Source of the DNA: an uncultured Pseudomonadales bacterium
GTDB taxonomy: Bacteria > Pseudomonadota > Gammaproteobacteria > Pseudomonadales > UBA7239
DNA length: 64,000 bases
Assembly: GCA_964509075.1 (NCBI GenBank)
Contig: CAZDWC010000004.1
Coordinates: forward strand, 30,940-94,939
Reading direction: 5' to 3'
Shown piece after piece: positions 7,342-46,743 of the stretch. The notes under the pieces are model-generated. The model was not told the DNA's origin, searched no databases, and saw nothing but the letters and a program-made list of their open reading frames with translations. Each line of letters begins with the position of its first letter. The first letter of the stretch is position 1. Both the position numbers and the translations under genes were made by a program.

Positions 7342-7445
7342 TGGCAGACAATGTAATTAAGACGAATCAGGTCACAGATTCTAACAAATTGCCCTGCACT
7401 GCATTGGGCGGCAGCCATCACACCCTCACCCGGCGCTATGCGCCA

Positions 7446-7469
7446 CCCTCTCCCGCAAGCGGGAGAGGG
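7446..7469. repeat. REP-like GC-rich hairpin (CCCTCTCCCGC-AA-GCGGGAGAGGG)
   Basis: 11-bp perfect stem with a 2-nt loop in the divergent mfd/hslV intergenic region. It is not positioned as a terminator. It shares its style with hairpins at 26136-26245 and 43407-44056. Confidence 0.5.
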
Positions 7470-26135: not shown

Positions 26136-26245
26136 ACAGCCCTCCCCTCCGGTTCACGCCGCGAACCACCTCCCCCCCTATCAGGGGAGGAGCAAACTCT
26201 CCCCCTGACAAGGGGGAGTACGCCGAAGGCGGGAGGGGGGTCAGG
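26136..26245. repeat. Cluster of GC-rich REP-like mini-hairpins between convergent genes
   Basis: Four consecutive hairpins: GGTTC-N7-GAACC, CCTCCCC..GGGGAGG, CTCCCCCT-GACA-AGGGGGAG, and CGCC-GAA-GGCG. The segment CAAACTCTCCCCCTGACAAGGGGGAGTACGC (26193-26223) is near-identical to part of the repeats at 43407-43529 and 43935-44056. Confidence 0.6.
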
Positions 26246-43388: not shown

Positions 43389-43406
43389 ACCTCCTCGCCC
43401 AAACCA

Positions 43407-43529
43407 CCCCGCCCCAGACCACCCCACCCCTGCGGGGTACCCCTCCTTGAAAAGGAGGGGAGTTGGAGATGTGGCACGGCCAAACTCTCCCCCTGCCAAG
43501 GGGGAGTGGCGCGTAGCGCCGAGGGGGTT
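43407..43529. repeat. Left copy of ~122-bp direct repeat flanking the DUF559 gene (string of GC-rich mini-hairpins)
   Basis: Contains CCCC-TGC-GGGG, CCCCTCCTT-GAAA-AGGAGGGG, CTCCCCCT-GCCA-AGGGGGAG and GGCGC-GTA-GCGCC. It aligns end to end with 43935-44056. Confidence 0.8.
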
Positions 43530-43564
43530 ACAATCCCAACCTCGACACCCAGGGATGGCGTGCC

Positions 43565-43978
43565 ATGCAAAAAATCAACAACATTCCCGCTTTGCGTTTC
43601 TTTCGAAAATCGCTGCGCAACGGTCTCACGCCGGCAGAGGCCAAATTGTGGCTGCACCTGAAACAGTCGCAACTGCAAGGGCGAAAATTCAGACGGCAAC
43701 ACAGTGTTGGACCCTATATTCTCGATTTTTATTGTCCTGCCGAACGTCTGGCTGTTGAGCTGGATGGCGCCGCGCATGATTCCATTGACGCAAGGGAATA
43801 TGACCGTGAACGGGATTTGTTTATTGCGTGCTTCGAAATAAAAGTTTTGCGCTTTGAAAACCAGTGGGTGTTTCTGGAGACGGAGGCAGTGTTGATGGAA
43901 ATTCAGCGACATTTTGGTTGGCTGGCAGAAACAACCCCGCCCCAAACCACCCCGCCCCTGCGGGGCACCCCTCCTTGA
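43565..43978 (+). CDS. DUF559 (Vsr-like endonuclease fold) domain protein
   Basis: 137 aa. LTPAEAKLWLHLKQSQLQGRKFRRQHSVGPYILDFYCPAERLAVELDGAAHD is the typical DUF559 core. The last ~14 codons are encoded by the right repeat copy. Confidence 0.85.
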   Translation: MQKINNIPALRFFRKSLRNGLTPAEAKLWLHLKQSQLQGRKFRRQHSVGPYILDFYCPAERLAVELDGAAHDSIDAREYDRERDLFIACFEIKVLRFENQWVFLETEAVLMEIQRHFGWLAETTPPQTTPPLRGTPP

Positions 43979-44056
43979 AAAGGAGGGGAGTGAGATGCGC
44001 GGCACAAACAAACTCTCCCCTGCCAAGGGGGAGTGGCGCGTAGCGCCGAGGGGGTT
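43935..44056. repeat. Right copy of ~122-bp direct repeat flanking the DUF559 gene
   Basis: It carries the same four hairpins in the same order as 43407-43529. By eye, differences are three point substitutions, one ~15-nt variable patch and one 1-nt indel. Confidence 0.8.
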
Positions 44057-44134
44057 GGTTCTTGAGAAGTCCCACGCAACCGGGTGGAGTTGTGCTTGCG
44101 TTAGAATACCGTCGTTAATCTTTATGGAGTTGCC

Positions 44135-45343
44135 ATGAGCCGTACCCGTTTTCTCGCTTCCATCGCCGCGCATGTGCCGTGGACTGCTGCGCAGTTGCTG
44201 GCAGAATCGACCTTGATGCGCACAGTAGCCAAACGTCCGGCTCGGGCAGGCGAGCGCCCGTGGGGTCATCGTCACGAACGCATCAGCGCCGAATGGCTCA
44301 CCGATGTTTTGCGCAAACAGCAGGCACTGAACAACGATCAACACGTCACGCGTTTTTCGTTGCAGCGTTTCGGTGAAATCGGCCAGATGTCGGCGGTTTA
44401 TCGTCTGGCACTGGATTACAGCGATGCTGTTGCAGCCCCGCGCACATTGGTGCTGAAAACGACCACCACCGAAATGAAAAACCGCATCTTCAACAGCTGC
44501 TTCGGTGTGTTTGAACGCGAAATTTGTACGTATCAATTACCACATCCCGAGCGCGGTTTGTTGCGGCCGAAATGCTGGTACGCCGGCCAGCAGCCGCTGA
44601 CGCGCGCCGGCTTTCTGATTTTTGATGATCTCGCCGAGTGGCGCGGTGTACCGGCCTACACCAAGCTCGGCATGGACGATGCGCTGCGTGTTGCAGTGGC
44701 GCTCGCCGAACACCACGCGCAATGGTGGGAAACGCCGGCGCTGCTTCAATCCGGTTTCCGCACCACGCTGGAAACCGTGCAGACTACCATGGGGCCGATG
44801 TGCAGCATGGCCTGGGGCAAGGCGCGCAAGGTGATGGCGGAGCTGGTCGACGCCGACATCGTCACGTTGCTCGGACGTTATGTCGCAAACCAGCAGGCGG
44901 TATGCCACCACATCATGGCGGGCCCGCGCACGCTGGTTCATGGCGATCTCAACACCAACAATATGTTTTTCGATGATGCCCAGCAGCGCGTCTGTGCCAT
45001 CGACTGGCAATCCACCCACATCGGCAGCTGGGCGGAAGATCTCGCCTACCTCGCGCTGATGTGTCTCGCCCCCGAAGACGCCGCCGCACACGAGCAGGCA
45101 TTGATCGACCTGCATCGCAACACCCTCGCCGCCAACGGCATACGCGTGGATGCCGATGCCCACCAGCGTGCCTATCCGCTGGGTGTGCTGCAGGTGGGCG
45201 CCATGCTGATTGTGGCAGCCATGGTGATAGACAAGGACAAGGATCCTACCTTGTACGAGCAGTACCGCAGCACCATCAGCGGCTGGGCGGAGGCTGCACG
45301 CCGCCATCGCCTCGACAGCGTGCTGGCCGGGCTGGGCGCATGA
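44135..45343 (+). CDS. Phosphotransferase-family kinase (APH / choline-kinase / EcKL-like fold)
   Basis: 402 aa. Catalytic loop HGDLNTNNMFF and metal-binding CAIDWQS. Confidence 0.72.
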   Translation: MSRTRFLASIAAHVPWTAAQLLAESTLMRTVAKRPARAGERPWGHRHERISAEWLTDVLRKQQALNNDQHVTRFSLQRFGEIGQMSAVYRLALDYSDAVAAPRTLVLKTTTTEMKNRIFNSCFGVFEREICTYQLPHPERGLLRPKCWYAGQQPLTRAGFLIFDDLAEWRGVPAYTKLGMDDALRVAVALAEHHAQWWETPALLQSGFRTTLETVQTTMGPMCSMAWGKARKVMAELVDADIVTLLGRYVANQQAVCHHIMAGPRTLVHGDLNTNNMFFDDAQQRVCAIDWQSTHIGSWAEDLAYLALMCLAPEDAAAHEQALIDLHRNTLAANGIRVDADAHQRAYPLGVLQVGAMLIVAAMVIDKDKDPTLYEQYRSTISGWAEAARRHRLDSVLAGLGA

Positions 45344-46743
45344 GCGAACCCGCGCACAATCCCCATCGCGGTCTGGTGATAGCGGTGATGGTGGCGGTAT
45401 TTCTCGCCGCCGTGGACCAGACCATCGTCTCCACCGCATTGCCGCGCATAGCCAACGATCTGGGCAACACCGCGCTCTACGCCTGGGTGTTCACGGCCTA
45501 CATGGTGGCCACCACGGTGTTTGTGCCCATCTCAGGCACCATCGGCGACACCCATGGCCGCCGGCCGGTGCTGCTGTTCGGCGTCGTGGTCTTTGCCATC
45601 GGCTCGCTGTGCGCGGGCAGCGCGGCGTCCATGCCGCAGCTCATCGGCTTTCGCGCCCTGCAGGGCATCGGTGCCGGCGTGCTCACCGCCAATGCTTTCG
45701 CCCTGCTAGGGGATGTCTACTCGGCAGCCGAGATGGCGCGCGCCAGCGGCATCATGTCGGCGGTTTACGGGCTGGCCGGCGCCGTGGGGCCGGTGCTGGG
45801 CGGTGTGCTCACCGATCAATTCGGCTGGCGCTGGATTTTCTGGCTCAACGTACCGGCCTGTCTGGCGATTGCCGTCATTCTGTTTGTACGCCTGCCGCAC
45901 AAGCCGGCGGCCAGCCGCGATCCGGTCGATATCCCCGGCGCGGTATTGCTCAGCGCGGCCCTGCTGCCGGCGCTTGCCGCGCTGAGCTGGGCGGGCGAAG
46001 GCGTGGCGTTTGGCGACACGCGCATGCTGGCCGCCCTGTTGGCCGCACTGGTCTTTGGCGTGTTGTTCGTGCGCGTGGAGCGCCGCGCCGTGCGGCCCAT
46101 CATCGCCCTGCACCTGTTCCGACACGCTACCTTCACGCTGGCGCTGCTGGCCATGTTCGGCGTGGCACTGGCCATGTACGCAGCGCTCTCCTATGCGCCG
46201 CTGCTGTTCCAGAGCCGCATGGGCATGAGCGCATCGCAATCCGGCCTGGTCACCGCGCCGCTGGTGCTCACGCTGTCGGTCACGGCGGCGGTGGCGGGCA
46301 GGCTGGTCGCGCGCGGTATGAGTGTGCGCTGGGTTTCAGCGTTGGGGGTGGCGATTGCTGCTGCGGCACTCGGCTGGTTATCGTCACTGGCACCCGATGC
46401 TGGCAAGGGCACGGCCGCTGCCGGCATGGCGCTGTTCGGCGCCGGCCTCGGTTTCACCATGCCCACCTTGCTGCTGGCGGCACAGGGCGCCGTGCCGCAC
46501 GGCCATATCGGCGTGACGGCCGCTCTGGCCAAGTTTTTCCGCGCTGTGGGTGGCCTGGTAGGCGTAGTGGCCGCCGGTGCGGCGATTCGTCACTTTCAAA
46601 CAATCAATACGCAGGCGATCAGCACCCAGCCGGGCGATGCACTTTCTTCAACCATCGGCTGCGCTGCGGTGGCGATGCTGGCCACATTGTTGTTGATTCT
46701 GGTGCTGCCGAAACCCGCGAGTGAAACACCCAGCTCGCGCTGA
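45340..46743 (+). CDS. MFS transporter, DHA2 (14-TMS, EmrB/QacA-like) type
   Basis: DQTIVSTALPRIANDLG opening and motif A GTIGDTHGRRPVLLFG. The ATG overlaps the kinase stop (ATGA). The track ORF start at 45061 lies inside the kinase gene. Confidence 0.9.
   Translation: MSEPAHNPHRGLVIAVMVAVFLAAVDQTIVSTALPRIANDLGNTALYAWVFTAYMVATTVFVPISGTIGDTHGRRPVLLFGVVVFAIGSLCAGSAASMPQLIGFRALQGIGAGVLTANAFALLGDVYSAAEMARASGIMSAVYGLAGAVGPVLGGVLTDQFGWRWIFWLNVPACLAIAVILFVRLPHKPAASRDPVDIPGAVLLSAALLPALAALSWAGEGVAFGDTRMLAALLAALVFGVLFVRVERRAVRPIIALHLFRHATFTLALLAMFGVALAMYAALSYAPLLFQSRMGMSASQSGLVTAPLVLTLSVTAAVAGRLVARGMSVRWVSALGVAIAAAALGWLSSLAPDAGKGTAAAGMALFGAGLGFTMPTLLLAAQGAVPHGHIGVTAALAKFFRAVGGLVGVVAAGAAIRHFQTINTQAISTQPGDALSSTIGCAAVAMLATLLLILVLPKPASETPSSR

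Follow-up and report, generated by a model that had tools for sequence, protein, structure and literature searches.

Within a 64,000-nucleotide stretch of DNA from an uncultured Pseudomonadales bacterium (GenBank assembly GCA_964509075.1, contig CAZDWC010000004.1, positions 30,940 to 94,939; here called the window), a gene for a DUF559 protein, a nuclease of the Vsr-fold PD-(D/E)XK type, lies between two long, structured direct repeats. On balance, we favor the view that positions 43403/43418 to 44056 constitute one horizontally acquired cassette in which the DUF559 gene is embedded in its own family of structured repeats. The evidence comprises the anatomy of the unit, the covariation of stems with tails and within the small hairpins, the association of gene and repeat, the boundaries of the unit, its intact catalytic residues, and its patchy distribution. 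Judged by their sequence, the repeats are a long-loop variant of the BoxC/PIT/TMECO motif and not generic repetitive extragenic palindromic (REP) elements. Both this repeat class and the DUF559 family were known; the long-loop doublet form is a variant of that class, and our searches found no published account of a pairing with DUF559.

The repeats extend over positions 43394 to 43529 and 43922 to 44056 at approximately 89% identity overall, with an intact DUF559 gene between them. An earlier note on this DNA, made by eye from the letters, had described two direct repeats that align end to end, and three alignments agree with it: a repeat search of the window (43394 to 43503 versus 43922 to 44031, 81% ungapped), gapped BLAST (89% over 129 nt), and MAFFT. 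The 3′ ends share an exact 40-mer (43490 to 43529 and 44017 to 44056). The substitutions, variable patch, and 1-nt indel that the note had listed between the copies were recovered with refinements: two of the three substitutions are compensatory, in the first hairpin (ACCCC..GGGGT on the left, GCCCC..GGGGC on the right); the patch is the spacer of approximately 25 nt that separates the two halves of the repeat; and the 1-nt deletion in the right copy shortens the pyrimidine arm of hairpin 3. Single-strand DNA folding predicts all four of the mini-hairpins proposed for each copy (z-scores of -3.1 for the left copy, -3.8 for the right, and -5.7 for a solo copy on contig C7). What had been missed is the design behind them, in that each 122-nt repeat is a doublet of two like modules in inverted orientation.

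Each module consists of an 8- to 9-bp hairpin whose 5′ arm is entirely pyrimidine and whose 3′ arm is entirely purine, a single base, a 5-bp GC hairpin, and a G/T-rich tail that repeats the purine arm in mirror order, with T in place of A. Read outward from the large hairpin, module A, on the minus strand, is CCCCTCCTT/AAGGAGGGG...GGGGTGGT, with AAGGAGGGG mirrored by GGGGTGGT; module B, on the plus strand, is CTCCCCCT/AGGGGGAG...GAGGGGGT, with AGGGGGAG mirrored by GAGGGGGT. Because the tails of each doublet point outward, the gene is directly flanked by a B and an A module whose tails both face it, and the end tails of the whole unit point away from it.

In the left doublet, module A (43418 to 43460, minus strand; C4:74399, C4 being the contig that contains the window) was assigned from the sequence and the DNA fold as triplex type with its tail away from the gene. 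It comprises the tail ACCACCCC (43418 to 43425), the small hairpin ACCCC-TGC-GGGGT (43426 to 43438), and the large hairpin CCCCTCCTT-GAA-AAGGAGGGG (43440 to 43460). A variable spacer follows (43461 to 43486), the length of which is kept across copies and the sequence of which is not, and then module B (43487 to 43529, plus strand; C4:74426) with its tail toward the gene, built of the large hairpin CTCCCCCT-GCCA-AGGGGGAG (43487 to 43506), the small hairpin GGCGC-GTA-GCGCC (43508 to 43520), and the mirror tail GAGGGGGTT (43521 to 43529). In the right doublet, module A (43931 to 43988, minus strand; C4:74927) has its tail facing the gene and includes a degenerate extra tail (43931 to 43945), the tail ACCACCCC (43946 to 43953), the small hairpin GCCCC-TGC-GGGGC (43954 to 43966), and the large hairpin (43968 to 43988). 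Sequence and alignment place its variable spacer at 43989 to 44014. Module B (44015 to 44056, plus strand) forms the outer right end of the unit, with a pyrimidine arm one C short (CTCCCCT), the small hairpin at 44035 to 44047, and the tail GAGGGGGTT at 44048 to 44056; homology to foreign cassettes stops at 44056 to 44063. Ahead of the left doublet stands an extra tandem module A tail, read from the sequence as ACCACCCC plus GCCCCAG (43403 to 43417, plus strand), which occurs in six copies in a Competibacteraceae homolog (locus L095). The earlier note was right that an additional ACCACCCC unit is present there, at 43403 to 43410; it is not specific to the left copy, because the right copy has a degenerate counterpart at 43931 to 43938.

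The gene itself spans positions 43565 to 43978 on the plus strand and encodes 137 amino acids, with the conserved domain at residues ~6 to 118. DUF559 is a very large protein family, few members of which have an assigned role. The open reading frame (ORF) matched PF04480 at 101.8 bits (curated cutoff, 20.6; E = 2.4e-29), and a match to NCBIfam PRK09767 fell under the equivalog cutoff. Its ATG lies 35 nt past the left copy, and its last 14 codons are supplied by the right doublet, as the earlier reading of the ORF had it; so is its TGA stop (43976 to 43978), which straddles the junction between pyrimidine arm and loop in hairpin 2. PDB entry 3HRL (NGO0050) was the top match in both sequence (E = 3.6e-19) and fold. 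With an AlphaFold2 model of the protein (pLDDT 87.6) as the query, Foldseek ranked 3HRL first (target TM-score 0.88), followed by I-Bth0305I (3R3P; 0.73, E = 2.8e-4) and then by PvuRts1I and Vsr (1VSR; 0.51, E = 0.19). On the basis of this model, the homing endonuclease I-Bth0305I is the closest characterized structural relative. Because D54, E65, D67, and H71 are invariant among 54 homologs, and all four are present in the window protein, the product is likely an active nuclease. Searches of defense-system libraries assigned the protein to no known system and returned only a weak local match to DpdF. Within the cassette, a promoter scan found no sigma-70 promoter, and an Rfam scan gave only subthreshold chance matches. 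A check for carriage by phages or plasmids yielded six distant viral matches only, and matches in plasmid records were mostly to chromids or large replicons.

To determine how the repeats are distributed in the host genome (3.23 Mb, 67 contigs), we scanned it for triplex-type modules, defined as a hairpin of at least 7 bp plus a mirror tail with at most one mismatch, and used the reversed genome sequence as a control. The scan returned 67 matches versus 4 in the control (62 after removal of poly-C artifacts on contig C65), and 48 of the 67 carry the small GC hairpin in the second loop. The arms of this small hairpin covary (GCCCC/GGGGC 12 times, GGCGC/GCGCC 10 times, CCCGC/GCGGG 3 times, and others). 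Across stem families, the tail likewise covaries with the stem in mirror order with A changed to T: GGGAGAGGG occurs with GGGTGAGGG, GGGAGAAGG with GGATGAGGG, AGGGGGAG with GAGGGGGT, and AAGGAGGGG with GGGGTGGT. Against a rough ORF map with 90% coverage of the DNA, 43 of 62 modules lay outside ORFs; modules were seldom located between divergent genes (3 of 61).

Exactly two DUF559 genes are present in this genome, and both are bracketed on both sides by triplex-type modules, with six modules observed within 200 nt of the two genes and ~0.03 expected from 62 modules across 3.23 Mb. The doublet type that flanks the window gene has only four copies in the genome. Likewise, the module A stem CCCCTCCTT has four, two of which flank the window gene and two of which lie in solo doublets (C7:153159-153271 and C2:330711-330825). 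The second gene (C8:14420-14764) is 39% identical to the first and sits in a region (C8:14282-14839) between two inverted BoxC-like modules of the form CCCCTCCCCC N6 GGGGGAGGGG TT GGGGAGGGGG, with a 2-nt second loop and tails outward; this module type has only two copies in the genome, both of which flank that gene. In the solo copy on C7 (L010:1495-1620), the two small hairpins are mutually complementary, so that this doublet can fold in a cloverleaf-like manner with an outer stem (z-score, -5.7). The small hairpins of the two flanking copies differ, which rules out a long REPIN-style hairpin across the doublet in those copies.

The pairing of gene and repeat extends well beyond this organism. 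Relatives of the protein number in the thousands, and the closest homologs (68 to 78% amino acid identity) are found in unrelated contexts: between acnB and a CMD gene in Vitreoscilla filiformis, and between hsdR and hsdS in a Competibacteraceae bacterium and in another metagenome-assembled genome (MAG; G042). The same A-spacer-B doublet is present at all three loci, and the Competibacteraceae locus has the full doublet-gene-doublet arrangement with the ACCACCCC tail unit expanded six-fold. When the cassette was compared with foreign cassettes by BLAST, homology was confined to window positions 43403 to 44063, with doublets 77 to 93% identical and coding regions 68 to 73% identical. In the complete Vitreoscilla genome searched, the only copies of the doublet are three that follow the gene directly in tandem; G042 has 13 doublet matches, 3 of which are beside the gene. 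Two Saccharibacteria MAG cassettes (L055 and L070) are homologous precisely up to the outward repeat tails, and one deltaproteobacterial MAG contains two cassettes, ~90% identical, in different contexts (L075 and L086). The recurrence of gene plus repeats in unrelated bacteria gives the package the look of a small mobile unit. The suggestion of a mobile or selfish cassette in the earlier note is partly supported, in that gene and repeats behave as one unit, the doublet flanks distant homologs, and homology stops at the doublet ends; neither an empty site nor a target-site duplication was found.

In a wider sample of 80 DUF559 loci from more than 10 phyla, two hairpin motifs were almost confined to the 300 nt nearest the gene. 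With a strict triplex-type finder, 70 of these loci had one or more modules no farther than 350 nt from the gene, at ~34 times the density found beyond 500 nt. The nearest upstream module was mostly on the plus strand and the nearest downstream module mostly on the minus strand, with minus-plus doublets common on either side. Every stand-alone DUF559 gene examined in relatives from the same genus also had a module within ~100 nt. Metagenomes searched with the exact 31-nt module A pattern yielded 60 copies in 49 loci, 27 of which were too near a contig end to judge. Among the 33 assessable copies, 16 were within 400 nt of a close DUF559 homolog (14 of them on the strand of the gene), and 17 lacked a nearby gene despite 800 nt or more of sequence on either side. 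The direct-repeat bracket appeared again in three further loci (L129, L131, and L133) at a spacing of 533 to 584 nt, compared with 528 nt in the window; since the L129 sequence is that of L095 and L131 matches it at 96% identity, about two independent contexts are added. An outcome that the earlier note had named as refuting it, ubiquitous REPs with no enrichment next to DUF559 genes, was not what we found. The REPs that it proposed are, more exactly, a variant of the known BoxC/PIT/TMECO motif. On a tree of 95 DUF559 domains, the second-loop class of the adjacent repeats changed 11 times (300 shuffles: mean, 29; minimum, 21), and the stem type changed 39 times (shuffle mean, 58). Host phylum is also clustered on this tree, so the result indicates coinheritance and not recognition.

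Several side observations concern these homologs. A 12-nt unit, CGAACCACCCCG, which combines the module A tail with half of the small hairpin, is repeated in tandem up to six times (L095:1950-2000; proteins P0002 and P0004) and appears as a TTPR repeat in the called proteins; the window has one extra unit on each side. At locus L098 (1400-1500 and 2085-2200), the cassette lies at the 5′ end of hsdS, with a truncated hsdS start (MPKLRVPEF...) upstream and an intact one (VPKLRFPEF...) downstream, the two starts being a diverged duplication of ~50 nt around the insertion. Database DUF559 proteins often carry N-terminal tails like NSPPAKGEYAEGGRG and C-terminal tails like TTPPLRGTPPLQGGEL, which are modules B and A in translation. 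In many homologs, module A starts three codons past a conserved FGW, and the tails read TTPPLRGTPP... Many database entries (among P0002 to P0110) overshoot by 20 to 80 residues because the gene callers ran on into the flanking repeats, and tails of the NSPPAKGEYAEGGRG and TTPPLRGTPPLQGGEL kind are an annotation artifact worth flagging.

The closest described relatives of the repeats are BoxC elements, which are the same as the PIT element and the TMECO intrastrand triplex motif with its three-block layout (Holder et al. 2015, PMC4666352, citing Bergler 1992 and Hoyne and Maher 2000). The published triplex consensus is CCCTCNCCC N3-6 GGGNGAGGG N3 GGGNGAGGG, with a short second loop (PMC4666352). 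The window modules share with it a pyrimidine block, a complementary purine block, and a G/T third block that mirrors the purine block (G*G:C and T*A:T), and they resemble it in being intergenic, multicopy, subject to lineage-specific bursts, and tied to variable loci. They differ in their stems, in occurring as inverted doublets, and in a second loop of 12 to 16 nt with its own covarying GC hairpin, in contrast to ~3 nt in the published motif. The modules at the DUF559 gene on C8 nearly fit the published BoxC consensus, and only these two have a 2-nt loop. Holder et al. report no mobility or nuclease gene near the motifs and do not mention DUF559 or ycjD (PMC4666352). Our literature searches found no publication linking DUF559 to triplex-type repeats. 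DUF559 proteins are listed as enriched, without comment, among the predicted inversion targets of Milman et al. 2023 (PMC9881135).

The enzyme of REP/REPIN systems is a transposase of the HUH/Y1 class, the REP-associated tyrosine transposase (RAYT). Such gene-repeat units, or REPtrons, were reportedly described by Nunvar in 2010 and by Bertels and Rainey in 2011. The window gene is similar to a RAYT gene in that its type is single copy and flanked by its own structured repeats, with inverted doublets dispersed between genes. Unlike RAYT, the enzyme is a PD-(D/E)XK Vsr-fold nuclease, and no RAYT over the Pfam cutoff is present in the genome (best match to PF01797, 18.4 bits); the repeats end in a mirror tail of the triplex type, and the gene is flanked by a doublet repeated in direct orientation. 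We also considered a transposon or miniature inverted-repeat transposable element and rejected it: there is no transposase, the doublet ends AACCACCCC and GAGGGGGTT are inverted at only 7 of 9 positions, and the solo copies show no duplication.

Among nucleases, I-Bth0305I (PDB 3R3P), a homing endonuclease of the EDxHD/Vsr-like type, has the same predicted fold (Foldseek E = 2.8e-4, TM-score 0.73) and is likewise a small, selfish-looking gene with a patchy, horizontally transferred distribution. It differs in sequence (19% identity), and the window gene has no intron, intein, or defined host gene target and resides in intergenic repeats. NGO0050 (PDB 3HRL) and Escherichia coli YcjD belong to the same family, with 42% identity to each, and the function of neither is known. 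YcjD resembles the window protein further in that it also ends in a degenerate hairpin and has a BoxC element downstream: at sapF-ycjD-fabI of E. coli K-12 (L110), a degenerate pyrimidine/purine hairpin is located at the end of ycjD and a canonical BoxC ~170 nt past the stop codon. The modules downstream of ycjD and on C8 have short loops, and the C8 tails point outward, whereas the modules of the window cassette are long-looped, with inward-pointing tails next to the gene. The ycjD form is found in 3343 of 5426 E. coli genomes, with 2083 lacking it; in the ycjD-lacking genomes listed, homology resumes ~40 nt beyond the BoxC. The eefRABCD operon is an alternative allele to ycjD at the sapF-fabI site (2026 paper, PMC12817139). 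Vsr and Caulobacter VsrA have the PD-(D/E)XK Vsr-like fold in common with the window protein. VsrA is a DUF559-domain protein that has been proposed to act in very-short-patch mismatch repair and that damages DNA in the absence of a partner methylase (PMC12907096). Vsr is only a weak structural match to the window protein (E = 0.19), and an association with repeats has not been described for Vsr or VsrA. The host genome has two cytosine-5 methyltransferase genes, on contigs C2 and C3, neither of which is near a DUF559 gene.

By profile matches, the cassette is preceded by a P450 gene and followed by an EcKL/APH-type kinase gene. The DUF559 gene type of the cassette is absent from 12 genomes of the same genus. 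Several relatives within the genus keep the P450 gene but have other genes after it, and the kinase of the downstream kinase-major facilitator superfamily (MFS) pair (44135 to 46743) has no ortholog in 20 relatives, the best match, in a single genome, being 27% identical. This gives the kinase-MFS pair the appearance of a strain-specific insertion adjoining the cassette. Given that the genes after P450 differ in relatives and that no kinase ortholog was found, the cassette lies at a synteny break beside strain-specific genes. This position fits the report that triplex-motif loci are rearrangement prone or unstable in E. coli (PMC4666352). Elsewhere in the window, a solo doublet of the same superfamily, with the stems CCTCCCC and CTCCCCCT, is located between convergent genes at 26190 to 26239 (C4:57129-57178); the related fragment noticed earlier near 26193 corresponds to it, with 96% identity by BLAST over 26193 to 26219. 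The module scan also placed a solo module of the abundant second stem family (CCCTCTCCC / GGGAGAGGG / GGGTGAGGG) on the minus strand at 7423 to 7469 (C4:38362-38408).

Taken together, these results suggest how a cassette of this kind could spread. From the sequences, the nuclease probably acts on the repeats. It would recognize the folded or extruded repeat and nick or cut there; recombinational repair templated on a gene-bearing locus, with the doublets as homology arms, could then copy the gene into a solo doublet and convert it to doublet-gene-doublet. Recombination between the flanking direct repeats, in turn, may leave solo doublets such as those at C7:153159 and C2:330711. A broader proposal, that DUF559 nucleases are dedicated partners of intrastrand-triplex repeats and that the cassettes are autonomous members of an undescribed class of mobile elements, is one we put forward tentatively and consider rather doubtful at present. 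Just as tentative is the form that such a class might take, with structured, triplex-capable ends, a Vsr-fold nuclease as the only protein, and solo doublets as nonautonomous derivatives or recombination scars.

A number of observations weigh against a horizontally acquired cassette. The right copy is closer to the C7 solo copy (92%) than to the left copy (89%), so the bracket is not a fresh duplication. The commonest stem family (at least 26 exact copies, ~40 in all) has no adjacent DUF559 gene, and the abundant family (CCCTCTCCC / CCTTCTCCC) occupies successive intercistronic gaps, where ordinary genes are bracketed by doublets too; its sites include an acyl-CoA dehydrogenase/thiolase/short-chain dehydrogenase operon and a pseudopilin operon (C4:127805-132699 and C1:292274-293760). 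Because pilin and fatty acid genes have doublets of this family on both sides as well, a direct-repeat frame around a gene counts for little by itself in this genome. In a related species (G012), a DUF559 gene is flanked by the abundant stem family, which makes gene loss one possible reading. The Vitreoscilla gene has no upstream module, and repeats occur in genomes with no DUF559 match (at least six doublets in G003 and seven exact modules in G010). Exact-pattern counts and gene presence showed no clear correlation in 41 relatives, a comparison for which exact patterns are too narrow because stems are genome specific. Holder et al. 2015 found no stable triplex in vivo (PMC4666352). The earlier note had pointed to an empty site with a single repeat copy as the sign of insertion or excision; none was found among genus relatives, the nearest of which have only ~75% DNA identity and different neighbors, and the locus comparison gave no informative allele because the genes after P450 differ and the kinase is absent. 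No filled/empty allele pair emerged from an all-against-all comparison of the 49 metagenome loci and the genome loci, and no target-site duplication was detected at the cassette or at the solo copies.

Some of these points would be accommodated by other explanations. If the DUF559 protein were a resident repeat-maintenance enzyme similar to RAYT/REPIN, a host-level, single-copy, nonmobile gene that spreads or homogenizes doublets in trans, one would expect, as is observed, a single copy of each gene type between repeats of its own type, with solo copies of the repeat at other sites in the genome. The 13 doublet matches of G042, 3 of them beside the gene, and the retention of the gene by Bacteroides species at a conserved site downstream of ruvB are also in keeping with this. 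We nevertheless regard such an enzyme as unlikely: the gene is patchy within the genus, its close homologs lie in differing contexts, one MAG has two diverged cassettes in different contexts, Vitreoscilla lacks dispersed doublet copies, and copy number shows no sign of following gene presence. Cis-acting control, in which the modules terminate, insulate, or block translation of a nuclease gene that may be toxic, with solo copies left behind by genes since lost, would account for the stop codon inside a hairpin, the lack of a sigma-70 promoter in the cassette, and the avoidance of divergent promoter gaps (3 of 61). This seems less probable still, since earlier work, as cited in PMC4666352, detected neither promoter nor terminator activity for PIT/BoxC, the sense strand of the modules lacks a T-tract, a simple terminator fails to explain a mirror tail that covaries with the stem, and ~40 gene-less copies reside within operons.

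The remaining explanation is passive association, in which the repeats mark recombination-prone gaps and DUF559 is an unrelated repair or defense nuclease, for example in Vsr-like T:G repair. Much is compatible with it: the repeats are found in many intergenic gaps, where they bracket ordinary genes; they occur without the gene; triplex-motif loci are rearrangement prone in E. coli (PMC4666352); the genome has two cytosine-5 methyltransferases; very-short-patch repair has been proposed for the Caulobacter DUF559 protein (PMC12907096); and two close homologs are inside type I restriction-modification operons. However, the doublet type of the gene is rare in its host yet identical beside homologs in other classes, and the spacing from the gene end to module A is fixed across many homologs (TTPPLRGTPP... 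three codons after FGW). In addition, about half of the assessable metagenome module A copies touch the gene, and neither methyltransferase adjoins a DUF559 gene. We therefore judge passive association to be improbable, to about the same degree as a resident maintenance enzyme, and continue to favor a horizontally acquired cassette.

BoxC/PIT/triplex repeats have been recognized since the 1990s in hundreds of bacterial genomes and linked to genome instability, and we know of no function, origin, or protein partner for them. The DUF559 gene is a candidate protein partner for this repeat class. If the pairing is functional, it would explain both the triplex-type repeats and the DUF559 family, and it would constitute a second nuclease-repeat partnership beside RAYT/REPIN, mechanistically unrelated to it.

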